From an uncultured delta proteobacterium (GTDB taxonomy: Bacteria > Desulfobacterota > Syntrophia > Syntrophales > UBA2192), in contig CAVPJD010000031.1 of assembly GCA_963705165.1 (NCBI GenBank), positions 34,819 to 98,818 on the forward strand: 64,000 bases of DNA, given 5' to 3'. The notes beneath the pieces were generated by a model. The model was not told where the DNA came from, ran no database searches, and worked only from the letters and a program-made list of their open reading frames with translations. Shown here in pieces: positions 39,238 to 56,115 of this stretch. The number at the start of each line of letters is the position of its first letter. Positions within the stretch are counted from its first letter, which is position 1. The position numbers and the translations under genes were made by a program.

Positions 39238-39273
39238 GGTCAGGGGTCTTGAATTATAAGATTTTGTTCATCG
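39238..39273. repeat. GGGGTCAGG-type element, long form
   Basis: ggtcaggggtcttgaattataagattttgttcatcg. Aligns with 41018-41053 and 43852-43887. Confidence 0.8.
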
Positions 39274-39332
39274 ATGATGACCCGTAACTGATATTTCAAG
39301 CTCCCCGCCCACAGGGCGGGACTTCCCGGCAA

Positions 39333-39400
39333 GGATGGTTCGTCGTTCGACAGGCTCACGATGACTGCTCACCATGGCGAACAGAAATGTCATCCTGAGC
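39333..39400. repeat. 68-nt repeat, family B copy 2
   Basis: 66/68 identical to 32214-32281. Confidence 0.9.
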
Positions 39401-39446
39401 GCCCGTCCTGAGTGCATCGAAGGATGTCGAAGGACCCCCAACTCAC

Positions 39447-39467
39447 ATTCCCTCAAGGGAGAGGGAG
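39447..39467. repeat. GER-type hairpin repeat (partial)
   Basis: acattccctcaagggagaggg. Confidence 0.6.
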
Positions 39468-39493
39468 ATCAGGGTAATGATTTTTCTGAGGCG

Positions 39494-39516
39494 CCCCCGG
39501 TCAAGACCTGACCCCC
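39494..39516. repeat. GGGGTCAGG-type element, short palindromic form (left end of FAD-oxidoreductase module)
   Basis: cccccGGTCAagaccTGACCccc. Its reverse complement matches the start of the long form at 41018. Confidence 0.75.
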
Positions 39517-39682
39517 TTCTTCCTCCATGATGTCAGATCTTGGCGCCTCTCATTCGTTTCACAATCGGGGCCGAAGCCGGTTTGCTGAGCGGCTTCTGGT
39601 CAGCAGCCGGAGTGCCCGGCCTCCGTGCCAAAACCTTTGCCTAACCAAGGCGTTAGCCCACCGAGCAAGACGGAAAAAACGA

Positions 39683-40993
39683 ATGAACGATTTCCCGTTC
39701 AAGACCTCATACTGGTTCGATTCACAGATCGCGACATCGCCATCGTTATCTGGAGCTGGAGCGCAATTCGCAGATGTGGCTGTTGTTGGCGGCGGGTTTG
39801 CGGGGCTTTCGGCTGTACAACATCTCAAGTCCAGCAAGCCCAACCTGAGCGTCGCGCTTGTCGAGGCGAAACACATCGGGTTTGGAGCAAGCGGCCGCAA
39901 TGCCGGCTGGGTGCTGAGTTTGCCTCCGGTCCATTGGCTGCTTGATGATTTCGATGATCCCCAGCGCCTGAGTGACATCCGTTGGACTTCTCAATTCTGC
40001 AGAGACAACATCGTTCAACTGGGCAGATTGGTCGCGAACGAAGCGATAGATTGTGCGTGGACTCCATCACGACATCTACTTGCCGCTCGGAACCCCCTGG
40101 AACTGGCCGCCCTTCGTTGGATCATGCAGCGCTACGAGGCGATTGGCCAGCACTGCGAGTTCTTCGAGAAGGAAAAGATGACCCAGCTTGTAGGTTACCC
40201 CGCAATCGCCGGTATGGCCTATGAGTTTGTGAGCATTCAGCCCTACCGGCTTGCACGAGGGTTGCGACAGCGCTGCCTTGACCAGGATGTACGGATCTAC
40301 GAGAACACACCCATCAAGACTATTCGTTCCACAAGCCAGGGCGTGCAACTGATCGCTGCCGATGGCGCCACGCTGACTGCCCAGAAGGTGATCCTGGCGA
40401 CAAATGCCTACACAAACTCTCTGATGCTTGACGTAGAAATTCCAGCGACCTCAACCCAGCATACCTATATGCTGGCAACCGAACCGCTGAAACCCGACAT
40501 GCTTGATCGTATCTCGCAAACTCGCACGCCATTCGGCGACCCAGCCCTATCGTTCTACATCGGCCGCATCTATGAGAATCGGCTGATATTCAACGGCATA
40601 GATCGAGCATCCCGGGTCACGCCAGAGGACGATCGCCATTTACCGTCCTTTATCAAGCTGCACAAGGAAATGCTGCGGCGGTTTCCGTTCCTCGAATCCG
40701 TCTCCTTGGCGGGGGCATGGGGTGGGGCGGTGCAGCAGACCACTTCGGACGCTCCAATCGTACAACGCTCGAAAAGCAACCCGAATGTCATTCTGAATAT
40801 CGGATATGGTGGTGGGAGCGGTTTGGGCATGGCGCTCCTTTCCGGTCAATTGACAACAGGTCTGGTTTTGGAAAGGGGACCGATAGACAACGATGCCCAA
40901 AGGCTGCGCACTTTGCTCGCCAACAGTCGTTTCCCCAAGATGGGGCCTGTACGCGCCGCGTTTGGGGTGCTCAGGAATATGGTTTTCGGCTAG
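39683..40993 (+). CDS. FAD-dependent oxidoreductase (DAO family)
   Basis: Dinucleotide-binding VAVVGGGFAGLSAV. 436 aa from ATG 39683; the track ORF starts at 39527 inside repeat sequence. Confidence 0.8.
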   Translation: MNDFPFKTSYWFDSQIATSPSLSGAGAQFADVAVVGGGFAGLSAVQHLKSSKPNLSVALVEAKHIGFGASGRNAGWVLSLPPVHWLLDDFDDPQRLSDIRWTSQFCRDNIVQLGRLVANEAIDCAWTPSRHLLAARNPLELAALRWIMQRYEAIGQHCEFFEKEKMTQLVGYPAIAGMAYEFVSIQPYRLARGLRQRCLDQDVRIYENTPIKTIRSTSQGVQLIAADGATLTAQKVILATNAYTNSLMLDVEIPATSTQHTYMLATEPLKPDMLDRISQTRTPFGDPALSFYIGRIYENRLIFNGIDRASRVTPEDDRHLPSFIKLHKEMLRRFPFLESVSLAGAWGGAVQQTTSDAPIVQRSKSNPNVILNIGYGGGSGLGMALLSGQLTTGLVLERGPIDNDAQRLRTLLANSRFPKMGPVRAAFGVLRNMVFG

Positions 40994-41017
40994 CTTCTTG
41001 GGCTGGGGGGGGATGAT

Positions 41018-41053
41018 GGGGTCAGGCCTTGAACTATAAGAGCATGATTATCG
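41018..41053. repeat. GGGGTCAGG-type element, long form (right end of FAD-oxidoreductase module)
   Basis: ggggtcaggccttgaactataagagcatgattatcg. Confidence 0.8.
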
Positions 41054-41095
41054 TTTGTTATCGCAAGAAGCTCCCACATAGAGAGGTGATGGAAA

Positions 41096-41443
41096 ATGAT
41101 CAGACGAAGCAATGAGATGCGAGAAGAACGCATGCATGGACTCAAGGGAGGAAAGGGAACCATAAAGCTGTTTCATTTGCTTGAGAAAGAGGAATTGTCG
41201 GGTAAGGGACGGCTCTGTGCAAGAGAGGTAATAGAACCGGGAAATTCTATTGGTTATCACCAACACGAGGGAGACTTTGAGTTATATTATGTGCTGGAAG
41301 GAGAAGGCATTGTAAATGACAATGGAGTTGAAACGACGGTAAGGAAAGGGGACGTGGTTTGCACGGGCCACGGCGAGTTTCATTCTATTCAAAATGTCGG
41401 GGACAAGAACCTCGAGATTATTGCAATAATATTATTTCAATAA
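41096..41443 (+). CDS. Cupin-domain protein
   Basis: GYHQHEGDFELYYVLEGEG...GDVVCTGHGEFHSIQN: two cupin motifs. Confidence 0.85.
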   Translation: MIRRSNEMREERMHGLKGGKGTIKLFHLLEKEELSGKGRLCAREVIEPGNSIGYHQHEGDFELYYVLEGEGIVNDNGVETTVRKGDVVCTGHGEFHSIQNVGDKNLEIIAIILFQ

Positions 41444-41594
41444 TCTTTAATGAAGTGGAATCCGCTAATCCCGCCATCTTGGGGTATGAGATGGGGGGTC
41501 AGACGCATTAGGAACGCATTAGGGGACGCCCATCAGGTTTGCTTCTTGCGAAGTTTGCGAAAGATTGGATCTGTTTTCTTCTGTTGAATAAATA

Positions 41595-41624
41595 AAGGCA
41601 GGGCCATTTCTGTCCCTGCCTTTA
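41595..41624 (-). terminator. Terminator hairpin
   Basis: AAAGGCAGGG-ccatttctgt-CCCTGCCTTT. 28/30 identical to 19629-19657. Confidence 0.6.
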
Positions 41625-41679
41625 TTTCCCTTACGACCCAATTGTCGGGATAGCGTGCTCAAGTTGAGCCGCTGCAGTT

Positions 41680-42105
41680 TTAATCATGGCCCTTGCCATG
41701 CCCATGATTGTCTTTGTCCTTTTTTCCTTCGTGTTTCCCGTTATGTTTTTCGCCGTGCCCCTTCCCATGACGCTCCTGATACTGGGGCACGTAGACTTCA
41801 TTGTACCATCTATCGCGCACGAAATAGACGGGGCGGCCACAGGCATTATACTTGGCGCAGTGCTTGCTCCAGTGTTTCTCATGACCGGGCGGTATGTGCA
41901 GGTAGACCGGTTGATAGACAACCCCGGCAGGAGCTGCATGAATCACGACGGGTTTTGCGTAGATGACTTCCGGTTGAGGATAATTTCCGATGTCAATGCG
42001 GCCATAAAAGCCGGGCTGGCCGACACTGACTGACACCCCGACATCGGCGGCATAAGCTGAAGTGACAGCAAGCATCATCATGATGATGAAAAGAAAATGT
42101 TTCAT
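41680..42105 (-). CDS. Secreted hypothetical protein with His/Lys/Gly-rich C-terminal tail
   Basis: Signal peptide MKHFLFIIMMMLAVTSAYA. The tail GKGHGEKHNGKHEGKKDKDNHGHGKGHD suggests metal binding. AGAGGA RBS. Confidence 0.65.
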   Translation of the reverse strand: MKHFLFIIMMMLAVTSAYAADVGVSVSVGQPGFYGRIDIGNYPQPEVIYAKPVVIHAAPAGVVYQPVYLHIPPGHEKHWSKHCAKYNACGRPVYFVRDRWYNEVYVPQYQERHGKGHGEKHNGKHEGKKDKDNHGHGKGHD

Positions 42106-42556
42106 GGCAGGTTCCTCTGATTTTTGGTGTTTAGTGGCCAGGGTTATGTCAGGGCTACTGACAGTAAATCTTCTACCATAGTAAACGAACAGGGTAAATA
42201 TTGGTTTACAAGATATTGATCGGTATTTTCACCTGAACACTTTAAATACGTTTCCCGGACTGATTGAGTTCCAGAGAAGATAGAAGGGCAGGTATTTTTT
42301 GGCGGGGACTGCGTATTAGGGGACCCCCCTCAGAGTTGCAGCTTTTATTCAAAGGTGGAATCAGGTGCCCCCCCATGCTCGCATTCGTACTATAACGACC
42401 AGTCAGCATATCTTCTCCTTGCCGCATGCAAACCAAACAGGACTTGATATTTCAACTATTTGCAGATATCTTCATCAGCGGTTACATATTGTATTCGCAG
42501 TAGGTTAACAATTTAACCAACCAACCCCTGCCGGGTGTTGCCATGACGAAATGATC

Positions 42557-42595
42557 AAAACCCCGCTTTCGGAAGAGGCGGGGTTTATTTTTATT
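42557..42595 (+). terminator. Orphan terminator-like hairpin upstream of the next gene
   Basis: AAACCCCGC-tttcggaagag-GCGGGGTTT then atttttattt. No + strand gene lies upstream. Confidence 0.5.
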
Positions 42596-42596
42596 T

Positions 42597-42620
42597 GGGG
42601 GTCAAGATCTACCCGTACCC
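42597..42620. repeat. GGGGTCAGG-type element, short form (left end of module)
   Basis: ggGGTCAAGATCTACCCgtacccc. Compare GGTCAAGACCTGACCCC at 39499. Confidence 0.6.
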
Positions 42621-42677
42621 CATAACGCTACCTGGCAATATTTCCTTATGATCAACCCGGATGAGAGGGGAATTATC

Positions 42678-43826
42678 ATGAGACGGGTAATGATGCTTTC
42701 CGTTGTCGTCGCAAGCGTTTTTATTTTTTTGGCGATTGTGGATACGGCCGTAGCATGGAATATTCAGCCTGTTTCCTCGATAACGGATAAGAAGATCGGG
42801 AAATTCGATCCGTGGTTCAAGAAATTGAAAAAGGGCGCTACGGCTGAAATTGCGGAACACTATACAAAGCCCCAACATGAGGACATCGCCCACCGGATCT
42901 TCGGGTGTGATGCAGAGGATTGCCGCTTTCCCCAGACTGGGCAGAAATTCGCGCCTCCAGCCGTGCTCGCCGGCGTCCGCTGGAATGACACCCCGCCATT
43001 TACCTTGCTCAAGACCAGAACGGCACTCTGTCCTGCAGATAAGGTCATCACGATTATCAACGACCCTGAGTGCTGGGGGATTTTGTTCAAGGACGCAAAG
43101 AAGCAGGCTGAAACGGGGAGAACGTATGGCAATGCCCCTTTGACCCTGGTGCTCTACCGTTCTCATTTCGGCGACATGCAGTTCCTTCACTCCATGGCGT
43201 CCAGCGAGCAGGAACGCGCTGGCGAGACCAAGCAGAAGATCATGGCCTGGGCCGAGTTCATGTACAGGATCGCCCTGGGCGAAATCACCCGCGGCACCAG
43301 CATCAAGAAAACAGGTATCCGGGACATCGATAGTCTGTTCACATACCGGTACGACACCATTCAGACGCTATTCGTGAGCGATGCCCCCAGAGAGTACAAG
43401 GCTGACGAGAATCTTCACCTTTTCGCCATGGGTGTGCTGATCCACATGGTTTCCGACAGTTTCTCGGACTCTCACGTGGAAAGGGGCGAGCAACGCGGGC
43501 AGGAATGCAAGAATGTCAGCGGCAAGCGTCATCCCGGATGGATTCGAGGTTTTCATGTTTACAATCTGCAGGACAGCTCAGCCCACAGCGATGCCGAATC
43601 CGACTACGCATTGGCCTACCAGTTCTATTATCCTGAGACAAATCTAGTTGACGTGGGCCAAACGATCATGGAGTATTACTCCAGGAAAGCCCCCTGGGAG
43701 GAGTTGAAAGGTTATTTGGACTGCGTGTATGACCTTGCAGACCCGAATGCACCGGCCGGCCCCGGCAGTCATTATCAAAAAATAGACAAGAAAATCATCG
43801 ATTCGAATATAATCCCATCATCATGA
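42678..43826 (+). CDS. Secreted hypothetical protein with conserved His/Asp motifs (possible metal-dependent hydrolase)
   Basis: Signal peptide MRRVMMLSVVVASVFIFLAIVDTAVA. Motifs HEDIAHRIFG, HFGDMQFLHSM, IHMVSDSFSDSHVE. Function is a guess. Confidence 0.6.
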   Translation: MRRVMMLSVVVASVFIFLAIVDTAVAWNIQPVSSITDKKIGKFDPWFKKLKKGATAEIAEHYTKPQHEDIAHRIFGCDAEDCRFPQTGQKFAPPAVLAGVRWNDTPPFTLLKTRTALCPADKVITIINDPECWGILFKDAKKQAETGRTYGNAPLTLVLYRSHFGDMQFLHSMASSEQERAGETKQKIMAWAEFMYRIALGEITRGTSIKKTGIRDIDSLFTYRYDTIQTLFVSDAPREYKADENLHLFAMGVLIHMVSDSFSDSHVERGEQRGQECKNVSGKRHPGWIRGFHVYNLQDSSAHSDAESDYALAYQFYYPETNLVDVGQTIMEYYSRKAPWEELKGYLDCVYDLADPNAPAGPGSHYQKIDKKIIDSNIIPSS

Positions 43827-43848
43827 TCCACCGGCTTCAGTGAGGGAG

Positions 43849-43914
43849 ATAGGGGGTCAGGTCTTGAAGTATAAGATTATGATTATCTATTACGACGCAT
43901 ATGACCCCCTATTT
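43849..43914. repeat. GGGGTCAGG-type element, long form closed by an 11-bp stem (right end of module)
   Basis: ATAGGGGGTCAggtcttgaagtataagattatgattatc...TGACCCCCTAT. Confidence 0.8.
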
Positions 43915-43972
43915 TGCGTGGCGGCACGGCCGAAAAAGAGCACACAAGGAAGACGTATGCTGAGAGGTTAAG

Positions 43973-44329
43973 ATGAGAAAACGGACAAAATTCATATTTG
44001 CGCTGCTGGGTTTTGTCGTATTGGCCGGGTGCTACGCATACCCTTATCCTGCGCCCGGACCGGTGTACTACTACGGGGCGAGCACCTACGACCGTTCCTG
44101 GAACGCTGCATTGGCTGCGATGCAAGATGTAGGTGTCAGCATGGTATCGTCTGACAGAAACAGCGGGGTCATCACGGGGATCAAGGACGGTGTTGACACC
44201 TCGATCACGATCAGCACGCAGGCAGACGGCCAAGTGAGAGTGGTGTTCAACTCGAGGGGCCCTTCGGGGCAGGACCCCGCTCTGTCCAACCGGATCTACC
44301 AGGCCTATGAACGGAGAATGGGGCGATAA
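43973..44329 (+). CDS. Hypothetical lipoprotein
   Basis: Lipobox VLAGCYA. GAGAGG RBS. 118 aa. Confidence 0.65.
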   Translation: MRKRTKFIFALLGFVVLAGCYAYPYPAPGPVYYYGASTYDRSWNAALAAMQDVGVSMVSSDRNSGVITGIKDGVDTSITISTQADGQVRVVFNSRGPSGQDPALSNRIYQAYERRMGR

Positions 44330-44358
44330 ATACAGAGTGAAGACATGAAAGGTGAAAT

Positions 44359-45471
44359 ATGGCGGCTCTATTCCGGGCCCTGATTTTTGCTGTTCCTGCC
44401 GTTGTTCTCCTGCTCGCAACGGCCCTCTGGTTCCTCTACGGAGGCGGCAGCTATTACCCTGACCTTTCGACTCCCCCCTTGCTGAGTGATGACAAGCTCG
44501 AGGTGGCCCTCCAGTCCGACGAACCCATCGGGAATGTTGCCGTCAGCCGGGACGGCCGTATCTTTTTCACAATCCATCCCGAATCCCGGCCGGATCAGAA
44601 CAAGCTGATGGAATGGCGCGGCACCGCCGCCGTCCCCTACCCCAGCGCAGAAATGCAGAAGTCCCATTTTCAGGCCGTCCTGGGTCTTGTCGTCGATCAG
44701 CATAACCGCCTGTGGACGATTGACCACGGCCTCCACGGGCTGCGGACCGCCAGGCTGTCGGCCTTCGACCTGGGAACCAACAAGCTGGTTCACGACTACA
44801 TCTTCCCTTCCGAGATTGCGCAGTCCGGTTCGTTTCTTCAGGACCTCCAGGTCGACTCGAAAGGAGAGACCGTCTACATCGCCGATGTGAGCTTCTTTCG
44901 CAAGAACCCGGCCATCGTTGTGTACGAGGTAGAGAAGAAAACCGCCCGCCGCGTGCTCGAATCCGATCCTTCCGTCTATCCCCAGGACTGGATCATCCGG
45001 AACCCGATCCAGGAAATGATCTTTTTCGACGGGCTGGTTGTTCTGAAGCCCGGGGTCGACGGGATCGCGCTGGACAGGCAGGACGAATGGCTCTATTACG
45101 CCGCCATGGCGCACGAGGGGCTTTACCGGGTGAGGACGGCGGATCTGAAAAACCGGCAGCTGAGCGCGACGGACCTGTCCGCGCGGGTCGAGCTTTTCAG
45201 CAACAAGCCCATGAGCGACGGGCTCCTGGCCGACAGGGCCGGAAACATCTACATCACGGACGTCGAGCACGGCTCCGTCATGCGTGTCGGTCCGGATAAA
45301 AAACTGCAGACGGTCATCCGCTCGAGTCGAATTCGCTGGGCCGACGGTCTGAGCCTTGGGCCGGACGGGTATATCTACCTTGCCGACAGCGCCATTCCGC
45401 ACTTGATGCTGCAGACCAAGAGCCACATGCGTTCGCAGGCGCCCTACACCATCTTTCGCTTCAAGCCCTAG
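44359..45471 (+). CDS. MRJP/yellow-like (or SMP-30-like) beta-propeller protein
   Basis: N-terminal membrane anchor. NRLWTIDHG, LQDLQVDSKGETVYIADVS, DGIALDRQDEWLYYAAMAHEGLYRVRTADL resemble the major royal jelly / yellow family. Confidence 0.65.
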   Translation: MAALFRALIFAVPAVVLLLATALWFLYGGGSYYPDLSTPPLLSDDKLEVALQSDEPIGNVAVSRDGRIFFTIHPESRPDQNKLMEWRGTAAVPYPSAEMQKSHFQAVLGLVVDQHNRLWTIDHGLHGLRTARLSAFDLGTNKLVHDYIFPSEIAQSGSFLQDLQVDSKGETVYIADVSFFRKNPAIVVYEVEKKTARRVLESDPSVYPQDWIIRNPIQEMIFFDGLVVLKPGVDGIALDRQDEWLYYAAMAHEGLYRVRTADLKNRQLSATDLSARVELFSNKPMSDGLLADRAGNIYITDVEHGSVMRVGPDKKLQTVIRSSRIRWADGLSLGPDGYIYLADSAIPHLMLQTKSHMRSQAPYTIFRFKP

Positions 45472-45539
45472 GTCCCCGAGAGGAGCCAAGGAGAAGAGGA
45501 GTCAATCAGCAGAAGATATTTCAGGAGGGTGCGTCGTCG

Positions 45540-46364
45540 ATGCTACCCGGTCAGATTATTGATTTCCATGTGCATCTGTTTCCCGATCGGTTTTTCGACG
45601 CGATCTGGCGTTATTTTGAAGAGCACCTGGGTTTGAAGGTCCTGTACAAGCTCTACTATCGAGAAACCGTCGCTTACTTGCGAGAGCGGGGTGTCGGGCC
45701 AATCGTCTATTCCAACTATGCTCACAGAAAAGGAGTTGCGAGAGTTCTGAACGACTGGAACGTCCGGATCCTTGACGAGATTCCGGATCTGTACTGTTTT
45801 GCTGCCTATCATCCGGACGATGATGATGCGCTCGTCATGGCAGAGAGGATTCTTGATCATCCGAAAATTCTGGGGTTCAAACTGCAATGTGTTGTGCAGC
45901 AGCTGTCCCCCTGTGACAGTCGACTTTTTCCGCTCTACGAGATGATTATGGAAAGGAAAAAGAGGGTCCTCCTGCATGTCGGTACGGGGCCCGTTCGAGG
46001 AAGTCCATTTGTCGGCGTTACACACTTCAAAAAGATCCTTGATCGCTTTCCGGACCTTCCCGCCAACATCCCGCACATGGGGGGCCTGGAATTTGAAGCT
46101 TTTCTTGAGCTGCTGGATCGTCATCCGGGACTTTACCTGGACACGTCCTATTCTTTTGTGCCGCATGTGCCCTATAAATTTAATCTCGGTAACGATTGGC
46201 TCGAGCGATACAAAGACAGAATCCTCTACGGCTCGGATTTTCCCAACCTGATTCACCCCAGAGAGCAGGAAATAGAGTATCTTCTCAATCTGGATCTCTC
46301 TGACGATTTCTACAGGAAAGTATTTTGGGACAATGGCTGCAAGCTGATCCGAGCGAGTTATTAA
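45540..46364 (+). CDS. Amidohydrolase-2 family metal-dependent hydrolase
   Basis: IDFHVHLFP N-terminal HxH motif. TIM-barrel hydrolase length (274 aa). Confidence 0.78.
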   Translation: MLPGQIIDFHVHLFPDRFFDAIWRYFEEHLGLKVLYKLYYRETVAYLRERGVGPIVYSNYAHRKGVARVLNDWNVRILDEIPDLYCFAAYHPDDDDALVMAERILDHPKILGFKLQCVVQQLSPCDSRLFPLYEMIMERKKRVLLHVGTGPVRGSPFVGVTHFKKILDRFPDLPANIPHMGGLEFEAFLELLDRHPGLYLDTSYSFVPHVPYKFNLGNDWLERYKDRILYGSDFPNLIHPREQEIEYLLNLDLSDDFYRKVFWDNGCKLIRASY

Positions 46365-46411
46365 TGAGAGCATAAAACAGGTGGCACAAACATCTTCCGG
46401 AAAAGAAGCCC

Positions 46412-46479
46412 CTGTCATTCCGGGCTTGACCCGGAATCCAGCATTCAAATGGATCCCCGCTTTCGCGAGGATGACATCG
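46412..46479. repeat. MITE-like double-hairpin repeat, family A
   Basis: ctgtcattccgggcttgacccggaatccagcattcaaatggatccccgctttcgcgaggatgacatcg. Confidence 0.75.
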
Positions 46480-46778
46480 TCGGATGCATGTCTCCCCTGG
46501 ATGATCGAATATGCAATCTATTTATCGCTCCCCGTAATAATGCACAATTCGCAGAGAAAGCAATGCAGAGCATTGCCTTGGGTCATCGTCGCTCCTGCCC
46601 GGTGTCATGTCCCGGTCTTACCGTGAAATTCATATCCTCAATTGCCTACAATAAAGTTCTTATCGGTTCGAATCCAGAGATCAGGATATTCCTGATTGTG
46701 AATAACTGCACAATGCCGTACTATACTCTATGTGAGCACGATTCAAGGCCGATCACCCATTTGCAAAAGGAGGCACAT

Positions 46779-48691: not shown

Positions 48692-48770
48692 CAATTGCCC
48701 TGCATGGACAGGACCCACCGCCTGCATAAATGAACTACACCGAAGCAAGCACGGGGTATCAAACAAGAAT

Positions 48771-48888
48771 GTCATGCCCGTGAAGCTTGTCCTCGCGAAG
48801 GCGGGGAACGGGGCATCCATCCTGGATTCCCTCTTTCGAGGGAATGACAAATTCGAAGCAAGCTTCGGGGTATTTACCCGCAGTGATT
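48771..48888. repeat. Family A composite repeat, inverted near-identical partner of 63352-63469
   Basis: The reverse complement of 48771-48870 equals 63371-63469 except for one extra C (99/100). About 18 more flanking nt are similar. Confidence 0.92.
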
Positions 48889-48975
48889 AAATTAGACAGA
48901 TTTACGCCTCCGCGGAAATGACGCTCATTCGAAGCGGGAATGACGGTATTGAACCCGCAGTGATTAAGGAGCTGA

Positions 48976-49443
48976 ATGCGGATCTTTATTGATGCAGATG
49001 CCTTTCCGAATGTGATCAAGGATGTGTTGATCAGGGCCTCGGCGCGCTTGAACGTGCCCCTGTGTTTTGTGGCCAATAAACCGATGAGGATCGAGGGGAA
49101 GGCAAACATTTCCATCATCGAGGTCCCTGCAGGAAGCGATGTGGCCGATGATCGCATCGCCGAGCTTGTGCAACCGGGCGACCTGGTGATTACCGCCGAT
49201 ATCCCGCTTGCCGACCGGGTGATTACCAAAGGAGCTTTTGCGCTCGACCCCAGGGGCAAACTTTATACGCAGGAAAATATCAAGAACAGCCTGGCCATGC
49301 GCGGACTGTTCAAAGAGCTGCGAGACGGCGGCATGATTTCGGGCGGCCCGGCGACATTCAGCAAAATAGACCGCCAGACGTTCGCGAACCGGCTGGATCG
49401 GTTCCTGACCGGGCATGTGAAAATCGAAAACGGCAAGACGTAA
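48976..49443 (+). CDS. YaiI/YqxD-family protein (UPF0178)
   Basis: MRIFIDADAFPNVIKDVL...GDLVITADIPLADRV. AAGGAG RBS. Confidence 0.85.
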   Translation: MRIFIDADAFPNVIKDVLIRASARLNVPLCFVANKPMRIEGKANISIIEVPAGSDVADDRIAELVQPGDLVITADIPLADRVITKGAFALDPRGKLYTQENIKNSLAMRGLFKELRDGGMISGGPATFSKIDRQTFANRLDRFLTGHVKIENGKT

Positions 49444-49487
49444 ACGGAACGGGGTCCGCGGTACAGGCAAGCATCCGTTTTCTGCAT

Positions 49488-49522
49488 AAAAAAAGCTCCC
49501 CCAATGCAGGGGGAGCTCTTTA
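49488..49522 (+). terminator. Intrinsic terminator
   Basis: aaaaaAGCTCCCCC-aatgca-GGGGGAGCTcttt. Confidence 0.75.
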
Positions 49523-49534
49523 GAGGCAAAGTAA

Positions 49535-49562
49535 AATTGCTGGCACCAAGGTGCCAGCAATT
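49535..49562. other. Perfect 12-bp hairpin between convergent genes
   Basis: AATTGCTGGCAC-caag-GTGCCAGCAATT. Confidence 0.6.
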
Positions 49563-49658
49563 TAGAAACTCAAGGAATTGTATGATCTGTTATTATGCTC
49601 GGTTTACCCCGCAGCAAGCTGCGGGGTAAGCGCGTGCAATCGTTTTGAACCTCAGGTC

Positions 49659-49859
49659 TTACAGCTTGCGAACATCCGCTGCTGCCGGACCCTTGGGGCC
49701 TGCGACAACATCAAAGCTTACCCGGTCACCCTCTGCCAAGGACTTGAAGCCCTCTGCCTGGATGGCGGAATGATGAACAAATACGTCCTTGCCACCGTCC
49801 TGCTCGATAAAGCCAAAACCCTTCGAATCATTGAACCACTTCACTTTTCCTTCAAACAT
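49659..49859 (-). CDS. Cold-shock protein (CspA family)
   Basis: [31 protein letters not shown]: RNP1/RNP2 motifs. 66 aa. AAGGAG RBS. Confidence 0.95.
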
Positions 49860-50216
49860 CTTTTACTACTCCTTTGTGTTGGGTTCCTCTTGGGAACCAT
49901 TAAATTATGCCGAATACTTCGGCTGGCAGCCTGTTTTTGCGCACAAAAAAACCGCACTTGCCATTTCTGCTGGTTTGTGCGGTCTACTTTTCTGTACTTT
50001 GTTGATTTACAAAAACGTACTGCACTTCAAGTAATGTGGATAATAAACGATCTTTTGCGGAAATGCAAGGTATTTTTTAAAAAAAGAACTTATCCTTTAC
50101 AAAAGCGGGCAATGCCGGTAGGCAGAGGGCGGGAATGTCTCTGGTTTCCCTGCAGGGTCGGGTCTTGACCAGGCGGCGCCCCCCGAACGGACAGGCTTAT
50201 ACACAGGCGAGATCAT

Positions 50217-52130
50217 ATGGGACTCATCTGGATCAATGAGGTTTCGGTCAGCTTCGGCGGGCCGCGGCTGCTGGACGGTGCTACGCTCCAGATCGAGGCG
50301 GGCGAACGAATCGGGCTTTTGGGCCGGAACGGTTCGGGCAAGTCCACCCTCATGAAACTGCTGATGGGCGATATCGCCCCGGATACCGGCGAAATCATCC
50401 GAAGCGGTGAGATCCGGATCGCCATGCTGCCCCAGGACGTTCCCGACGATCTGCCGGGGACGATCTATGATGTTGTGGCCTCCGGTGGCCGGGAACACCT
50501 GGAGCTGCTCCGGGAATACCACGATCTCACCCTGCAGATGTCCCGGGCAGGCGATGACGGCCTGCTGAAAAAGCTCGAACGGGTTCAGCACCGGCTGGAG
50601 ACCTCCGGCGCCTGGCGTTATCATCAACGGGTGGAAATGGTGATCGCCCGGACCGACCTGGACGAGAATGCCGAGTTCCGGATCCTGTCGGCGGGAATGA
50701 AACGCCGGGTTTTTCTGGCCAAGTCCCTGGTGAACGACCCGGATCTGCTGCTCCTGGACGAGCCCACAAACCACCTGGACATCGACGCCATCCTCTGGCT
50801 CGAGGATTTCCTCCTGAAGTTCGAGAAGACTCTCATGCTCGTGACCCATGATCGGGCGTTTCTCCAGCGACTGGCGACACGTATCGTGGAGATCGATCGG
50901 GGTCGCCTGCTGTCGTTTCCCTGCGATTACGGCACGTACCTCGAACGCCGTCAGGGCCTGCTGGAGGCGCAGGAAAAGCAATGGCAGGAATTTGACAAGA
51001 AACTGGCCAGGGAGGAGACCTGGGTCCGGCAAGGAATCAAGGCCCGTCGCACTCGCAACGAGGGCCGGGTGCGGGCGCTGGTGCAGATGCGCCGGGAGCG
51101 GGCACACAGGCAGGAGCAGACGGGCAATGTCCGGCTGACGATCCAGGAAGCGGAACGCAGCGGCAGATTTGTCGTGGAAGCGGAAAAGATTCACTTCGCC
51201 TTCGGCGATCACAAGATCGTGGAAGGGTTCTCCACCGCGATCATCCGCGGCGACAAGGTGGGCATTATCGGGCCCAACGGCTCGGGCAAGACCACGCTGC
51301 TCAAGCTCCTTCTCGGAGAACTGGAACCGCAACAGGGCAGGATCCGCCTGGGGAACGGAATCCGGATCGCCTACTTTGACCAGCTCCGCGCCCAGCTCGA
51401 CGAAAAAGGGACCCTGAAGGATAATATCGCCGATGGCAACGACATGGTCATCGTGGGCGGCGTCTCGCGGCACGTAGCGGGCTATCTCCAGGATTTTCTT
51501 TTTCCGCCGGATCAAATCCTGTCGCCGGTCAGCTCCCTGTCGGGCGGTGAGCGCAATCGCCTCCTCCTGGCGAAACTCTTCATCGTCCCCTCCAATGTCC
51601 TGGTCCTGGATGAGCCGACCAATGACCTCGATACCGAAACGCTCGAACTCCTCGAAGACCGGCTCCTGGAATACAGCGGCACGATCCTCATGGTCAGTCA
51701 TGACCGCGCGTTCCTCAATAACGTGGTGACCTCAACGATTGTCTTCGAAGGCAAGGGGCTCCTGCAGGAATACGTGGGCGGCTATGACGACTGGCTCCGG
51801 CAGCGGACAGTACCGGATGAGTCGTTGAAGACGGCATCGAAGGACCAGAAACAGAAGAAGGACAAACCCCCGAAAGAAAAGCAGAAGCTGTCCTATAAAG
51901 AGACGCGGGAGCTGGCGGAGCTTCCGCTGCAGATCGAAGCCCTGGAGCAGGAGAAGGAGCGCCTGCTGGAGACCCTGAATTCTCCCGCATTCTATGCGAG
52001 CAGGGACGCGGTTGAAATAAAAACGGCCAGCGACCGGCTGAAGGCCCTGGAAGAGGAACTGGACAGTGCCTACGGCCGCTGGGACGAGTTGGAGAGCCTG
52101 GCTGCAAAATTTAGCGGCGAACCGGGATGA
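50217..52130 (+). CDS. uup: ABC-F family ATPase (Uup-like)
   Basis: Two ABC cassettes (GRNGSGKST, GPNGSGKTT; LSAGMKRR, LSGGERNR) and a C-terminal coiled coil. No TM domain. Confidence 0.88.
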   Translation: MGLIWINEVSVSFGGPRLLDGATLQIEAGERIGLLGRNGSGKSTLMKLLMGDIAPDTGEIIRSGEIRIAMLPQDVPDDLPGTIYDVVASGGREHLELLREYHDLTLQMSRAGDDGLLKKLERVQHRLETSGAWRYHQRVEMVIARTDLDENAEFRILSAGMKRRVFLAKSLVNDPDLLLLDEPTNHLDIDAILWLEDFLLKFEKTLMLVTHDRAFLQRLATRIVEIDRGRLLSFPCDYGTYLERRQGLLEAQEKQWQEFDKKLAREETWVRQGIKARRTRNEGRVRALVQMRRERAHRQEQTGNVRLTIQEAERSGRFVVEAEKIHFAFGDHKIVEGFSTAIIRGDKVGIIGPNGSGKTTLLKLLLGELEPQQGRIRLGNGIRIAYFDQLRAQLDEKGTLKDNIADGNDMVIVGGVSRHVAGYLQDFLFPPDQILSPVSSLSGGERNRLLLAKLFIVPSNVLVLDEPTNDLDTETLELLEDRLLEYSGTILMVSHDRAFLNNVVTSTIVFEGKGLLQEYVGGYDDWLRQRTVPDESLKTASKDQKQKKDKPPKEKQKLSYKETRELAELPLQIEALEQEKERLLETLNSPAFYASRDAVEIKTASDRLKALEEELDSAYGRWDELESLAAKFSGEPG

Positions 52131-52145
52131 CGGCGGGATTGTTCA

Positions 52146-52418
52146 ATGCGTGAATCGTGGAAGACCTATCTCCTTCTCTGCGCCGACGGGAAGATCTACT
52201 GCGGCGTCACCAACGATATGGAAAAGAGGCTCGATGCCCACAACCGGGGCGTAGCCTCCCGGTTCACCCGGGGGCGGCTGCCCGTGACGCTGCTGGCGAC
52301 AAGCAGGGCCATGGGAAAGGCCGAGGCCTTCCGGCTGGAATACAGGATCAAGCGGCTCCCGAAAAAAAAGAAACTGGCGGCGCTTACTTCCGCACAACGC
52401 CGTCCTCGAAAAAGATAA
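52146..52418 (+). CDS. GIY-YIG nuclease-family small protein (UPF0213)
   Basis: YLLLCADGKIYCGVTNDMEKRLDAHN. 90 aa. Confidence 0.85.
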   Translation: MRESWKTYLLLCADGKIYCGVTNDMEKRLDAHNRGVASRFTRGRLPVTLLATSRAMGKAEAFRLEYRIKRLPKKKKLAALTSAQRRPRKR

Positions 52419-52457
52419 ATGTCCGAAATGATTACGACTGCGACAAGACATCTTAAT

Positions 52458-52523
52458 TTGTCATTCTCGCGAACGCGGGAATCCAGTCAGGGATGGATGC
52501 CGGATCCAGTCCGGCATGACATC
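52458..52523. repeat. MITE-like double-hairpin repeat, family A
   Basis: ttgtcattctcgcgaacgcgggaatccagtcagggatggatgccggatccagtccggcatgacatc. Confidence 0.75.
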
Positions 52524-52711
52524 TTTTACATTTTACTTGCCGGAGTAATAACGGCATCGGACGGTGGAACGTTCGCGGTCAAGACGTCAACCTTGACGGA
52601 TCCTCGCAGGCAAACGACGGGGTCTGACTGAAGTATTGACATTTGCCCTGCTTCGATGTGTAACTATCGATGCTGACCCCGGCAGACGTGAGTCAGGAAA
52701 GGAGCAAGAGC

Positions 52712-53281
52712 ATGAAGAAATTGATTTGGATCGTACTAATGCTGTCGTTGTGCGCAGGCCCGGCGTTTGCGCAAGAAGCCGGCAAGGGAAACCCGACCGT
52801 CGTGATCAAAACCAGCAAGGGTGTGATCGAGGCCGTGCTATTCAGGGACAAGGCGCCCATCACGGTTGATAATTTCATGAAATATGTCGATTCCGCATTC
52901 TACACCGGAACCATCTTTCACCGGGTGATCAGCGGCTTCATGATCCAGGGCGGGGGCTTTGACCGCTACTTCACACAGAAGCCCACCCGGCCGCCGATCA
53001 AGAACGAGGCCGCCAACGGTCTGAAGAACGAGCGAGGCACGCTGGCCATGGCCCGCACGTCGGCGGTGGATTCGGCTACCGCACAGTTCTTCATCAACCT
53101 GAAAAATAACGCCATGCTCGACCACGGCTCCCGTGATTATGGCTACGCGGTATTCGGCAAGGTCACCAAGGGCATGGAAGTGGTTGACGCAATCGCCAGT
53201 GTACAGACCGGGCCGCAGGGTCCGTTCGATTCGGACGTCCCCCGCACCGCCGTGATCATCGAATCGATTCGGGTGAAGTAG
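52712..53281 (+). CDS. ppiA: Periplasmic cyclophilin-type peptidyl-prolyl isomerase
   Basis: Signal peptide MKKLIWIVLMLSLCAGPAFA. FHRVISGFMIQGGGF, GTLAMAR, SATAQFFINL. Confidence 0.92.
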   Translation: MKKLIWIVLMLSLCAGPAFAQEAGKGNPTVVIKTSKGVIEAVLFRDKAPITVDNFMKYVDSAFYTGTIFHRVISGFMIQGGGFDRYFTQKPTRPPIKNEAANGLKNERGTLAMARTSAVDSATAQFFINLKNNAMLDHGSRDYGYAVFGKVTKGMEVVDAIASVQTGPQGPFDSDVPRTAVIIESIRVK

Positions 53282-53302
53282 GCGAATAGGAGGGAGGTTC
53301 CC

Positions 53303-53737
53303 GTGGCGAGAATCGGAATCATGACATGCTCGAATGCCGTGCAGGAGCTGGGCTGTTCATCTGCAGTCTGCCTGGCGGACATGCGGAAACGAAAAGGCGC
53401 TTTTGCCGATTACCCGAAAGACGAACCCGTCGACCTAGTCGGCATGATCAGTTGCCCGGGATGCCCGACCCTCGTCGGCGAAGACAAGCTGCTTTCGCGA
53501 ATCCGGGCACTTACCGAGTTCAGGGTGGACGTGATTCACTTCTCCAATTGCGTAACGGAGCTCTGCCCGTTCAAGAACAAGTATAAGAACGCTTTGGAGG
53601 CCGCTTACCCGAAGGTCAGGATCCGGCTCGGCACGCACCAGGACGTGATTACCGAGGAGGAGTTCAGGTCGCGCGTGAAGAAGCTCTTCGGTCAGGAAAG
53701 GAAAACGATGGTCGACGTGATCCTGGGAAGGGATTGA
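53303..53737 (+). CDS. CGGC-domain protein
   Basis: GTG start after AGGAGGGAGG. IGIMTCSNAVQELGCSSAVCL...ISCPGCP cysteine pattern. Confidence 0.72.
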   Translation: MARIGIMTCSNAVQELGCSSAVCLADMRKRKGAFADYPKDEPVDLVGMISCPGCPTLVGEDKLLSRIRALTEFRVDVIHFSNCVTELCPFKNKYKNALEAAYPKVRIRLGTHQDVITEEEFRSRVKKLFGQERKTMVDVILGRD

Positions 53738-53768
53738 TTGACAGCACCACAGAAACCAGGAGGACGAC

Positions 53769-54053
53769 ATGGTGATCATTACGAGCAAATATGTGAAACC
53801 GCTGGACGTGATCGATTCGCTGCTGGCCGATCATCGAAAGTTCCTGAAGGAGTGTTACGCCCAGTCGAAGTTCATCTGCTCGGGGCCCCAGAACCCGAGG
53901 GTCGGCGGGGCGATCCTTGCCAACGTCGGCATGGACGAGGCGCAGGAGATCATGAGCAAGGACCCCTTCACGATCCACGGGGCCGCGGAGTATTCCTTCA
54001 TAGAGTTCACCCCCGGCTCGTATGACGAGCGCTTTGCGTGCTTCGTGAAATAA
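53769..54053 (+). CDS. YciI-family protein
   Basis: 94 aa. LLADHRKFL...GPQNPRVGGAILANV...DPF pattern. AGGAGG RBS. Confidence 0.78.
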   Translation: MVIITSKYVKPLDVIDSLLADHRKFLKECYAQSKFICSGPQNPRVGGAILANVGMDEAQEIMSKDPFTIHGAAEYSFIEFTPGSYDERFACFVK

Positions 54054-54079
54054 GGAAATCGCGAACGGAGTAACAGCGA

Positions 54080-54490
54080 ATGATGACAAATGAGAAAGCG
54101 AGGGAGTTTGCCTCCCGGTGGCTGCCTGCTTGGACGGGCAACGAGCCGGAGAAACTGGCGGCGTTCTATTCCGATGACGCCTTTTACCTCGACCCCGCCG
54201 TGCCCGGAGGGATCCAGGGAAAGGACCCTCTGCTTGCCTACTTCCGGAAGCTTCTGGCTCAGAACCCGGACTGGGTCTGGACCCAGATCGAAGCGATCCC
54301 GATGGAAGGCGGGTTTCTGAACAAGTGGCTGGCCCGGATACCCATCGGGGATAAAATCGTCGAGTGCATCGGTGTTTGTTTCGTGCAGTTCGACGACCGG
54401 GGGAAAATCAGGCGCAACGAGGTATACTTTGACCGGACCCAGATGATGCTGGAGATGTCCAGATTAAGACAGGTCAAGAAGGTTGGCTGA
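54080..54490 (+). CDS. SnoaL/NTF2-like domain protein
   Basis: FASRWLPAWTGNEPEKLAAFYSDDAFYLDP is a typical NTF2-like N-terminus. 136 aa. Confidence 0.72.
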   Translation: MMTNEKAREFASRWLPAWTGNEPEKLAAFYSDDAFYLDPAVPGGIQGKDPLLAYFRKLLAQNPDWVWTQIEAIPMEGGFLNKWLARIPIGDKIVECIGVCFVQFDDRGKIRRNEVYFDRTQMMLEMSRLRQVKKVG

Positions 54491-54499
54491 CACGACCAT

Positions 54500-54578
54500 C
54501 GAGTTCACGGAACCCTTCGAGCTGGCGCTGCGGCTCATGGAGGAAACACATCGGCACGTCTTCGTCACGGGCCGCGCC
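54500..54578 (+). pseudogene. Remnant 5' fragment of a PIF1/RecD-like helicase gene
   Basis: 71/79 nt identical to 56290-56368. Encodes IEFTEPFELALRLMEETHRHVFVTGRA and breaks inside the Walker A motif, where a GGGGTCAGG-type element begins. No start codon. Confidence 0.75.
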
Positions 54579-54598
54579 CCCGGTCAAGACATGACCCC
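54577..54598. repeat. GGGGTCAGG-type element, short form (left end of cassette)
   Basis: cccccGGTCAagacaTGACCcc. Confidence 0.75.
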
Positions 54599-54795
54599 AT
54601 ATACCGCACTTTCCTGCTATTTCGGCCAGCTGACAAAACCCGCCTAATACTATTTTCGTAGTTAAAATTCATACCGGACGCTTATTGTAAATCTCCTATG
54701 CCTGGCATAAGAAGTATTCGCACGTCCTTAAGTGCCGGGCAGATGTCATGTTTCAAGTCAGACCACGGTCTTAAGCCCAAATGGGAGGTCTCCAG

Positions 54796-55995
54796 ATGAA
54801 CGGTTCTTCGCGAAATGGCGGTTCCCTGTGGCCCTGTGTTCTTTCTTTCGTTTTCCTCGCTGCGGTTTTCTGCTGCAGCGCCAAGCAAGCCTGGGCCAAT
54901 CCGGAAAAAGACGCATCGAGCCGGAAGCAGAACATTTTCTTCTTCGAGGAGAAGTCCGCGACTTACAGCCGGGATATCGGCAAAGCGGGCGACAGGAAGG
55001 TCATCGACCAGCACACGGCCGAGTGCATGGAGGCCCCCGACTACCGGCTGGTGGCGGGGAAGAAGGCATCCAAAATGAAGTGTAAGCCCAACGGCCCCTT
55101 GAAGGACTTCCCGGTGTGCGGTGAAAAGGATGCAGCCTGGTGCGGCTCCTGCTGGATTAAAGAGGATAACACCTGGTGCTGCAAGAACCGGAAGGGTCCG
55201 GGGCAGCTGCCGGATTGCGGGAAAGATTCGTCGACCTGTCCGTATGCGGCCGGCTGCTACGAGAACGGAGTCTGTGCCAACATCTGCATGAAACCGCCGA
55301 AGAATCCAGGCGGACCAACCAACATCAAGATCACCAACTACAGCGCCAAGGATGTGACGATCGCCTTCGTCACGGCGGCGGCAAAAAAAGATAGCGCCTG
55401 CACGGACATCAACCGGATGATCTCCTACCAATGGGTCGCCGAAAACACCTCGTGGTGCAAGGACCCCACGCAGGAAGGCGGGGATGCGAACGCCGGGCAT
55501 TGCACGGGAGTCATTGAGTCAGGGCACTCCGTGGAGTTGATTCGAACCGGGAAGGATGCCGCCAAGTGCCTGTCCGGCGCGATTATGCTGGGCGGTAAAT
55601 TGTCCTGCCCTCAGCCGACCGGATTCACCCAGGGTGAGTTCACTCTCAACCCCACGGATACGTCGACGGAAGCGGTCGATATCAGCCTCGTGAACGGCGT
55701 AAATTACGCGCTGACTGTCAAATTCCCAGGCGACGCATGGGCCGTCCAGGACGGGGGAAAGCAGGTCTTCACTATCGGCCCGAACGAGGGGCTCCACGGG
55801 GACAACAACAAGAACGGGATCTTCCCTCCCGGATGCACCGATTGCATTCAGGCGATAGCCGGCCAAATCCCCTGCCCGGACATCACGGGGAACAACCCCA
55901 AATGCCAGCAGTCGCGCATCTGCAACATCTACCGGGCCGGCTGGACGGGCGGAACGGTCGAGTTCATCATCACCGACCTGCCGCCGCAAAAATGA
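54796..55995 (+). CDS. Secreted Cys-rich protein with thaumatin-like C-terminal domain
   Basis: Signal peptide. GGGAGG sits 7 nt before ATG 54796. The C-terminal half resembles the thaumatin/PR-5 family (IKITNYSAKDVTIAF; TQGEFTLNPTDTSTEAVDISLVNGVNYALTV; many paired Cys). Confidence 0.55.
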   Translation: MNGSSRNGGSLWPCVLSFVFLAAVFCCSAKQAWANPEKDASSRKQNIFFFEEKSATYSRDIGKAGDRKVIDQHTAECMEAPDYRLVAGKKASKMKCKPNGPLKDFPVCGEKDAAWCGSCWIKEDNTWCCKNRKGPGQLPDCGKDSSTCPYAAGCYENGVCANICMKPPKNPGGPTNIKITNYSAKDVTIAFVTAAAKKDSACTDINRMISYQWVAENTSWCKDPTQEGGDANAGHCTGVIESGHSVELIRTGKDAAKCLSGAIMLGGKLSCPQPTGFTQGEFTLNPTDTSTEAVDISLVNGVNYALTVKFPGDAWAVQDGGKQVFTIGPNEGLHGDNNKNGIFPPGCTDCIQAIAGQIPCPDITGNNPKCQQSRICNIYRAGWTGGTVEFIITDLPPQK

Positions 55996-56092
55996 TCGGC
56001 ATGTTGCGGACCTTCCCGGCGTTCCCGGACGGTCATCTCGGCAAAGATCGGGGGGCAGGCTCAAAACTTGACCTTTGCCTGCCCCCGGCCAT

Positions 56093-56115
56093 GGGGGTCA
56101 GGCCTGATTATTGAC
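56093..56115. repeat. GGGGTCAGG-type element (right end of cassette)
   Basis: gggggtcaggcctgattattgac, inverted relative to 54577-54598. Confidence 0.7.

Follow-up and report, generated by a model that had tools for sequence, protein, structure and literature searches.

Short inverted repeats in a strain-variable region of an uncultured Syntrophales genome are probable relics of TIRtron ends

Introduction

A 64,000-nt stretch of DNA from an uncultured delta proteobacterium of the order Syntrophales (GenBank assembly GCA_963705165.1, contig CAVPJD010000031.1, positions 34,819 to 98,818 of the forward strand; hereafter "the window", with position 1 as its first letter) includes a low-GC stretch at ~36.5-50 kb (GC 0.40-0.55, with flanks at 0.60-0.68), between alaS and an ABC-F gene, that holds the sites of a short repeated sequence of the GGGGTCAGG type. 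The original prediction, made from the letters of the window, was that three plus-strand genes, encoding a DAO-type FAD oxidoreductase, a secreted PLPC-like protein and a Cys-rich, thaumatin-like protein, share a palindromic "left form" and an inverted "right form" of this sequence, and that they are single-gene modules reminiscent of integron cassettes or of inverted repeat (IR)-bounded transposons derived from miniature inverted-repeat transposable elements (MITEs). We describe here the evidence that the GGGGTCAGG-type sequences are very probably orphan, partly decayed terminal inverted repeats (TIRs) of a TIRtron, or TIRYT element.

TIRtrons are genes resembling those for REP-associated tyrosine transposases (RAYTs; REP, repetitive extragenic palindrome) that lie between TIRs sharing the sequence GGGGWSAS, and the corresponding repeat families occur as single copies, dimers and clusters (Di Nocera, De Gregorio & Rocco, 2013, PMC3733652). 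The TIRYT enzymes form subclass 2.1 of the TnpA-Y1 transposases, with a helix-turn-helix (HTH) or Bac_DnaA_C tail, and no REP-like repeats were reported near subclass 2.1 genes (Quentin et al., 2018, PMC6006769).

Results

Repeat copies in the window

All of the strings on which the prediction was built are present, at most 1 nt from where they had been placed (39494-39516, 42597-42614, 54577-54598, 41018, 43853 and 56094), and the longer version of the right form was confirmed at 39238, 41018 and 43852, although the alignment at 39238 requires an indel of 2-5 nt. The 15-mer GGGGTCAGGTCTTGA recurs with no more than one mismatch at 39501-39515 (minus strand), 41018 (plus), 43853 (plus) and 54584-54598 (minus), and the tail CTTGAANTATAAGA comes next at 39248, 41028 and 43863. 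Read on the opposite strand, the left form is GGGGGTCAGGTCTTGACC; the left and right forms are thus one 16-nt sequence in opposite orientations. They are the two arms of a single element, with their GGGG ends facing outward. The bare 9-mer GGGGTCAGG, allowing one mismatch, is weakly enriched in the window (36 matches, against 23.6 expected).

A profile of the repeat family, made from 110 copies in other genomes and run on the 64-kb window with nhmmer, gave four significant matches, with E-values from 7e-9 to 2e-3, at 43852, 41016, 39238 and 39516 (minus strand), placing these window copies in the same repeat family as arms that flank transposase genes elsewhere. The proposal that three genes share the same flanks therefore holds only in part: the strings are there, but the sequence at 42597 had no match to the profile even at an E-value of 100, and those at 54577 and 56093 are marginal. 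GGGGTCAG conforms to GGGGWSAS, and we did not find this arm (GGGGTCAGGTCTTGAAATATAAGA) in the searchable literature. The sites are as follows.

39217-39300 (plus strand): copy A; flank and terminus stutter (GGAAGGTCGGGGGTCT / GGGTAAGGTCAGGGGTC), left arm GGGGTC-TTGAATTATAAGA, loop TTTTGTTCATCGATGATGACCCGTAACT and right-arm start GATATTTCAAG; nhmmer match at 39238, E 4e-5
39301-39497 (no strand): nested insert; unrelated high-copy intergenic repeats that appear to split the right arm of copy A, with CAAG on both sides
39498-39516 (plus strand): copy D; putative rest of the right arm of copy A, GTCAAGACCTGACCCCC, which is the "left form" of the DAO gene; nhmmer match on the minus strand at 39516-39501, E 2e-3, and an exact 15-mer match
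41016-41053 (plus strand): copy B; left arm and loop start ATGGGGTCAGGCCTTGAACTATAAGAGCATGATTATCG, right arm gone; nhmmer E 3e-7
42597-42614 (plus strand): GGGGGTCAAGATCTACCC, the "left form" of the PLPC-like gene; unsupported as a family member; adjoins an intrinsic-terminator-like hairpin at 42558-42586
43851-43909 (plus strand): copy C; self-contained collapsed hairpin GGGGGTCAGGTCTTGAAGTATAAGATTATGATTATCTATTACGACGCATA-TGACCCCC; nhmmer E 7e-9
54579-54600 (plus strand): copy E; right-arm fragment CCCGGTCAAGACATGACCCCAT, beginning precisely at the left junction of a strain-specific insertion in a helicase gene
56092-56113 (plus strand): copy F; degenerate left arm ATGGGGGTCAGGCC-TGATTAT; marginal profile match

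In its right-arm start, GATATTTCAAG, copy A agrees with the right subterminal sequence that autonomous units and MITEs of the family have in other genomes, and copy D, which reads (GT)CAAGACCTGACCCCC, is separated from that start by ~200 nt of other repeats; copies A and D would thus be a single hairpin divided by a nested insertion. Of these repeats, 39333-39400 has a 97%-identical counterpart at 32214-32281, and 39448-39507 one of 77% identity at 32476-32535. Twenty freshwater or sediment metagenome runs cover parts of 39000-44100, and we placed contigs of four runs, plus a fifth for the helicase region, on the window at a minimum identity of 88-90%; contig depth reaches 200-650 across 39306-39406, where run X4 has a variant insert.

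Copy B lies 25 nt past the stop codon of the DAO gene and 43 nt ahead of the ATG of a cupin gene. Copy C (GGGGGTCA...TGACCCCC) lies 27 nt past the stop codon of the PLPC-like gene, and its right arm is short by ~17 nt, through a deletion. Support for copy E comes from a stretch in which it and the GCGCC before it are identical at 25 of 26 positions to 39492-39516, that is, to copy D and its upstream junction. Copy F follows the hairpin at 56049-56086, which resembles a terminator of the Cys-rich gene; the folding energy of this hairpin plus the arm is -19.9 kcal/mol (z -3.4). Copy F looks like copy B minus ~15 nt and may be a family member. Copies D and E both have the variant GGGGTCAKGTCTTGACCGGGGGCGC, which was sought in 183 loci and found in the window alone. 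The window copies deviate from the canonical arm at its N position and are in most cases truncated; most likely, they are old and no longer move. Their neighbours are genes for OmpW, the DAO-type FAD oxidoreductase, the cupin, the secreted PLPC-like protein, an MRJP-like protein, an amidohydrolase, an outer-membrane protein, ABC-F, a cyclophilin, a CGGC protein, a SnoaL-like protein, the Cys-rich protein and a Pif1-WYL helicase.

A Y1/HUH transposase gene beside the same arm in other genomes

We searched contigs of 185,579 species genomes, one genome per species and 596 Gb in all, for the 22-nt core GGTCAGGYCTTGAANTATAAGA, which has 20.5 specified bases. The core occurs in 100 stretches from about ten phyla, where by our estimate ~0.5 would be expected by chance. 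Carriers belong to the Bacillota, Nitrospirota, Thermodesulfobacteriota, Gammaproteobacteria, Actinomycetota, Chloroflexota, Elusimicrobiota, Atribacterota, Caldiserica and bins of the candidate phyla radiation, and they include megabase-scale and other long contigs of several phyla, as well as one isolate (Geotalea sp.). Among 113 aligned copies the dominant form is (A)TGGGGTCAGGTCTTGAAATATAAGA, and 27 of these copies by a strict test, or ~30 by eye, lie 22-25 nt ahead of a gene that begins MARPLRIEYPGAVYHVTSRGN and encodes a protein of ~285 aa. This protein matches Pfam Y1_Tnp (E 3e-12), has the HUH motif (NHYHL, position 60) and the catalytic Tyr motif (RYVVLNPVRA, position 119), and ends in an HTH (HTH_23, residues 244-280); a sequence search of the PDB with one such enzyme gave nothing at an E-value of 0.01. 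In all 14 complete genes, GGGGTCAGGTCTTGAAATA stands upstream and its inverted partner CAAGACCTGACCCC follows 5-79 nt past the stop codon. A partner arm lies within 400 nt of 34 of the 113 copies, and many of these pairs have no gene between them and form hairpins of 60-90 nt; a canonical gene-less example folds at -18.5 kcal/mol (z -7.8). In the 14 complete units and the paired-arm hairpins alike, the GGGG ends point outward (GGGGTCAGG...CCTGACCCC). A recombinase or transposase with the distribution of the elements had been suggested as something to look for; the enzyme tied to the family in other genomes is a Y1/HUH transposase. We also considered the 38-bp IR of the Tn3 family, with its GGGG...TAAG pattern, and rejected it: the arm here has only ~22-24 nt, and the adjacent gene in ~30 loci encodes a Y1 rather than a DDE enzyme.

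The family is strongly tied to gene boundaries. Open reading frames (ORFs) of at least 150 aa cover 71% of the loci yet contain only six of 111 copies, so the elements are not scattered at random with respect to genes; an intergenic bias of this strength, similar to that of REPs, makes successive genes appear bracketed. The enzymes are 53-75% identical across phyla, beside an unchanged arm, and 88-98% identical within one genome that has four gene copies, so that the family behaves like an insertion sequence that hops between lineages and not like a domesticated, single-copy RAYT.

A close relative, L052 (Syntrophaceae UBA2192), has cupin and outer-membrane protein genes that are 91-97% identical to those of the window. 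Upstream of its cupin gene, at the same site as copy B, is an intact 75-nt hairpin with the same loop. The loop, TTATGATTATCGATGG... (its sequence is also given as TTATGATTATCGATG), looks like the 5' leader of a TIRYT gene together with its start codon, suggesting that the hairpin is an internal-deletion derivative of an autonomous unit. Copy C is 88% identical, across 50 nt, to a copy in this relative. Between 4500 and 6470, L052 also carries an element of the IS3 type and a solo arm, and the upstream region and 5' end of its cupin gene are duplicated in tandem; the intact hairpin is exactly at the junction of this duplication, and the second copy of the cupin gene lacks an internal part.

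The places of copies B and C, 25-27 nt past stop codons and ahead of the next gene, would also suit elements that the host keeps for regulation, as terminators, protectors of mRNA 3' ends, outward promoters or protein-binding sites, their transposon origin being incidental. Such jobs are known for REPs (PMC3733652); copy C folds as DNA into a hairpin (-11.3 kcal/mol, z -4.1) followed by TATTTT; and the arm of autonomous units is so close to the ATG (22 nt) that it probably overlaps the promoter of the transposase gene. Nonetheless, consensus scans of the elements for sigma-70 promoters and intrinsic terminators scored no higher than shuffles, copies B, D and E taken singly fold no better than shuffles, and Rfam gave no match at the elements at E-values up to 1. 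The varied truncation of the copies counts against selection on a defined structure, and we regard a regulatory role as very unlikely to explain them.

Arm orientation and the cassette model

Under the cassette model, the elements bound mobile single-gene modules, like cassettes or mobile insertion cassettes (MICs), and a recombinase or transposase moves the unit of left form, gene and right form. The pairing of arms that this demands proved to be wrong. The proposed modules read CCTGACCCC-[gene]-GGGGTCAGG, with GGGG termini toward the gene, whereas true units of the family read GGGGTCAGG...CCTGACCCC; the genes therefore stand between elements rather than within one, and the DAO gene has one element's right arm before it and the following element's left arm after it. 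The idea of an IR-bounded, MITE-derived element survives in altered form: there is one family of imperfect inverted repeats of the MITE type, but its arms are wrongly oriented for IR-bounded gene units.

The likeness to integron cassettes fails on the same orientation and on the absence of both attC cores and an integron integrase. As had been noted from the start, RYYYAAC and GTTRRRY cores are missing, and neither is in the family consensus. It had also been said correctly that no integron integrase is nearby: the only tyrosine recombinases of the window, at 17542-18672 and 18605-19483, look Xer-like and score 74 and 107 bits on TIGR02249, well under its cutoff of 265, and no recombinase was found among the scanned ORFs of 34-60 kb. 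Circular cassette junctions had been suggested as a further sign of mobility; no joint of a circular or excised form with arms at its edges was seen in the metagenome contigs.

An insertion in the helicase gene

One point in favour of mobile modules is that the segment with the Cys-rich gene is polymorphic, being inserted or deleted, and that its left junction coincides exactly with an arm. Contig depth over the segment is 0-7, against ~10-240 in the closest flanking bins, and the drop starts at copy E. Empty-site joints, which connect the SnoaL gene straight to the helicase, run from 54500 to 56281 in runs X1, X3 and X5 and from 54551 to 56342 in X2 (1790 nt skipped, 26 nt ambiguous), and across the five metagenome runs this empty form is several-fold commoner than the insertion. 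The prediction that bracketed genes differ between strains is thus upheld for the Cys-rich gene, by depth and joints, but not for the DAO gene, which has full depth in four runs. The helicase 5' fragment behind the call of an interrupted helicase gene copy was also confirmed, and the parts are as follows.

54499-54578 (plus strand): resident helicase allele, codons ~21-47, upstream of the insertion; 90% identical to 56289-56368
54579-56368 (plus strand): strain-specific segment of 1790 nt, with arm E, the Cys-rich gene (54796-55995), a hairpin, arm F and a second helicase 5' end

The left 80-nt copy is the resident allele, since its letters are found in the empty-site contigs at 56335-56341. 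Its reading frame is open back to 54468, and a TTG at 54480 overlaps the stop codon of the SnoaL gene, making the empty form a plausible intact operon. The second 5' end comprises a promoter region and codons 1-47 of a different allele; the helicase gene remains intact because the insert brings this new 5' end with it.

The right edge of the segment fits poorly with a unit defined by arms: this breakpoint, at 56368, is inside the helicase gene, 270 nt beyond the right form (arm F). The left junction has a 5-nt microhomology, GCGCC, common to the helicase and the sequence preceding arm D at 39492. We infer that the insertion arose by homology-facilitated illegitimate recombination of foreign DNA: a foreign piece with arm E, the Cys-rich gene, arm F and a helicase 5' end would have been anchored by helicase homology on one side and joined at GCGCC on the other. 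The donor arrangement, a Cys-rich gene beside a Pif1 helicase, was not seen in two homologue contexts. The thaumatin-like call for 54796-55995 is supported by several homologues of the Cys-rich protein for which a match to Pfam PF00314 (thaumatin) is precomputed; the nearest homologue is only 66% identical, and an exact-sequence look-up of the window protein returned no record. One locus with a 63%-identical homologue, L183, has beside it a different, 220-aa Y1 transposase gene flanked by perfect inverted repeats, GGGGACACCATACTTAATTAT, at 5340-5365 and 6060-6085, and thus another TIRtron with its own arm.

Gene content of the surrounding region

Gene content of the region varies among relatives, which we found for this comparison through the ABC-F gene, and in one of them, L106, two other genes follow the cyclophilin gene, with a secreted nitroreductase gene between two full family hairpins. 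A different secreted gene in such a position is what mobile modules would produce. Other observations point away from them. The depth of the DAO gene is full and even in all four runs, so this gene is not variable, and the left form of the second proposed module, at 42597, is outside the family. In the close relative L104, the genes orf101, lipoprotein and MRJP are reordered, with breakpoints (44059 and 53286/53758) that are not at elements; the CGGC gene is missing there, 53286-53758 of the window corresponding to 53 nt (13101-13154), and neither edge has a GGGGTCAGG-type element. Taken with the arms that face the wrong way, the right edge of the Cys-rich segment inside the helicase gene, the lack of an integron integrase in the window and of attC cores in the family consensus, and the lack of arm-bounded circular or excision joints in the contigs, these findings largely refute the idea of mobile single-gene modules, which we now judge highly improbable.

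Depth in the OmpW region (38000-39100, GC ~0.40) is 0-8, mostly 0-4, in 100-nt bins of the four metagenomes, and 1-2 over 38000-38663, against 13-110 in the adjacent DAO gene; the OmpW region is probably another strain-specific insertion. Depth of the PLPC-like and MRJP genes is low in X4 only. Two joints in run X3 (39335 to 41056 and 41002 to 42311) involve high-copy repeats and short sides, and we treated them as unreliable. The region is a general mosaic, in which elements are sometimes at junctions but do not set the units of change.

Tandem arrays at arm ends

Outside many arm termini of the family there are short tandem duplications ("stutter" arrays) that take in the flank and the outermost 7-40 nt of the arm. 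Loci with such arrays include L003, L008, L030, L037, L043, L051, L082, L089 and others, and copy A of the window has one at 39217-39237; L030 has AAGGAATGGGGTCA three times over, and L003 a run of TGACCCC / AGACCCC units past the right arm. Arrays on either side of an element are in opposed orientation, and their units often contain the terminal GGGGTCA or TGACCCC. An extra GGGTC lies within 43 nt upstream of 23 of 110 left arms, compared with 6 of 110 in a control window, and TRF placed an array in the outer 40 nt of 48 of 169 arm ends, compared with 2.9% of random positions, which were not strictly intergenic.

These arrays, with their terminal heptamers, raise the possibility that element ends are active sites of rearrangement, at which Y1 nicking or hairpin stalling leads to flank duplications, illegitimate joins and shuffling of single genes. 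Arm E stands exactly at the junction of a 1790-nt insertion flanked by an 80-nt duplication, and the hairpin of L052 where the tandemly duplicated cupin 5' regions meet, as would be expected if this were so. These are just two or three junction cases, however; other breakpoints of the same region have no elements, and the control for the array count was random positions and not strictly intergenic ones. We therefore think it unlikely that the element ends are active in this way. Equally unlikely is the more specific suggestion, made from the arrays, that at the outer termini of TIRYT arms the Y1/HUH enzyme, or replication stalling induced by the hairpin, repeatedly duplicates the junction of the flank and the first 7-40 nt of the arm.

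Other features nearby

A second short repeat, (T)AGGGGACGCCCCTCAGAKTTGC, lies behind gene ends in the window (41518-41547 and 42318-42345) and in L052 (4485, 3540 and 1715); its GGGGAC resembles the start of GGGGWSAS, and it may therefore be an arm of another Y1 family. At 49601-49935 (minus strand) there is an Rfam match to the cspA thermoregulator, at 64.4 bits (E 2e-14; gathering score 78). The ORFs over this match, 48964-49560 (minus strand) and 49578-50168 (plus strand), have no Pfam hit and may be spurious, overlying the leader of a cold-shock gene. Inverted repeats at 48751-48874 and 63367-63489, 14.5 kb apart, are 62-71 nt long and 94-100% complementary, and come from other hairpin repeat families.

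Discussion

We propose that the sites in the window descend from a TIRtron. Its autonomous form, of ~950 nt, consists of (A)TGGGGTCAGGTCTTGAAATATAAGA, ~22 nt, the gene for the ~285-aa Y1/HUH transposase with its HTH, the stop codon and (GA)TATTTCAAGACCTGACCCC(AT). Loss of the gene by deletion would leave a hairpin of 60-90 nt, similar to a MITE or REPIN, in which the two arms, the 5' leader and a few codons are still present; if the IS200/IS605 elements and RAYTs are a guide, a TIRYT acting in trans would cut these hairpins in single-stranded form and rejoin them. What the window holds would then be a split hairpin (39217-39300 and 39498-39516), a collapsed hairpin (43851-43909), a solo left arm (41016-41053) and two marginal fragments (54579-54600 and 56092-56113), every copy being intergenic in a low-GC, strain-variable region. 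Successive intergenic gaps would each have come to hold an element, as is the case for REPs, giving the genes their bracketed look; the genes would not be cargo, and the variable content of the region would come from ordinary insertion, deletion and recombination, with some of the junctions at elements.

Several observations weigh against this origin, which we nonetheless consider very probable. Two of the seven sites are marginal matches to the profile when taken singly (54600-54584, E 2.1; 56094, E 3.5), and tblastn found no TIRYT gene in the 64-kb window. The metagenome contigs have no joint that would correspond to clean removal of a hairpin, and likewise no sign of transposition, cleavage or excision was seen. 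The enzyme falls 0.1 bit short of the cutoff of NCBIfam REP_Tyr_transpos (79.9 bits against 80). Lastly, the list of phyla comes mainly from metagenome bins, in which some contigs may be mis-binned, and the scan of species genomes collected exact matches only, so that the variability of the arm is not measurable from it.

Among known systems, the closest are the TIRtrons themselves, with which the family shares a Y1/HUH gene with a C-terminal HTH, TIRs that start with GGGGWSAS, and the scattering of the same repeats; it differs in that the window has only orphan, decayed arms, and in that the family arm is unchanged across about ten phyla, in several copies per genome. REPs and REPINs with their RAYTs (Nunvar, 2010; Bertels & Rainey, 2011; Ton-Hoang, 2012) are likewise short, hairpin-forming intergenic repeats, mostly behind gene ends, that flank a Y1 gene in inverted orientation and whose gene-less doublets make long hairpins. 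However, REP units are individually palindromic and have a 5' GTAG (or CGTC) tag, whereas the consensus arm here has neither tag and single arms are not palindromic and fold no better than shuffles. RAYTs are single-copy, vertically inherited genes with lineage-specific repeats, unlike the multi-copy enzyme of this family, which is spread across phyla in the manner of an insertion sequence, and the number of copies in the window is low by the standards of REPs (four solid copies per 64 kb). The IS200/IS605 elements (IS608, ISDra2) also have a Y1/HUH transposase and presumably share movement as single-stranded DNA with hairpin recognition, but their ends are subterminal hairpins on one strand rather than TIRs, and their TnpA, of ~130-150 aa, has no HTH tail.

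The two systems named by the original prediction are further removed. Integron cassettes with attC are alike only superficially, in that a single gene is followed by an imperfect palindrome; the family has no RYYYAAC/GTTRRRY core sites, IntI, or array at attI with Pc, and its enzyme belongs to a different family. Like MITEs and MICs, the gene-less hairpins appear to be internal-deletion derivatives that retain both ends and the 5' leader; classical MITEs and MICs are DDE-derived, with target-site duplications of fixed length, whereas here the parent is a Y1/HUH element and there is no passenger gene within an arm pair.

A false lead is thereby removed, in that there is no new cassette system in the window, and the metagenome contigs reveal the route by which a secreted, thaumatin-like gene entered one strain without destruction of the helicase gene. 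If junctions at arm ends are indeed duplicated repeatedly, elements would be expected to have opposed short tandem arrays on both sides, with occasional longer flank duplications and illegitimate joins; TIRYT activity could then be a source of the paired, convergent arrays of 7-9-nt repeats at gene ends, and could also drive the shuffling of single genes in accessory regions. The stutter arrays are in any case a testable clue to how TIRYTs act on DNA, and may bear on the origin of intergenic heptamer arrays. An intergenic repeat of an uncultured Syntrophales genome is now linked, very probably, to a named but barely studied class of transposases, and the occurrence, in about ten phyla, of the same 22-24-nt arm next to enzymes with only 53-75% identity offers a handy pair of substrate and enzyme for the first biochemistry of a TIRYT.

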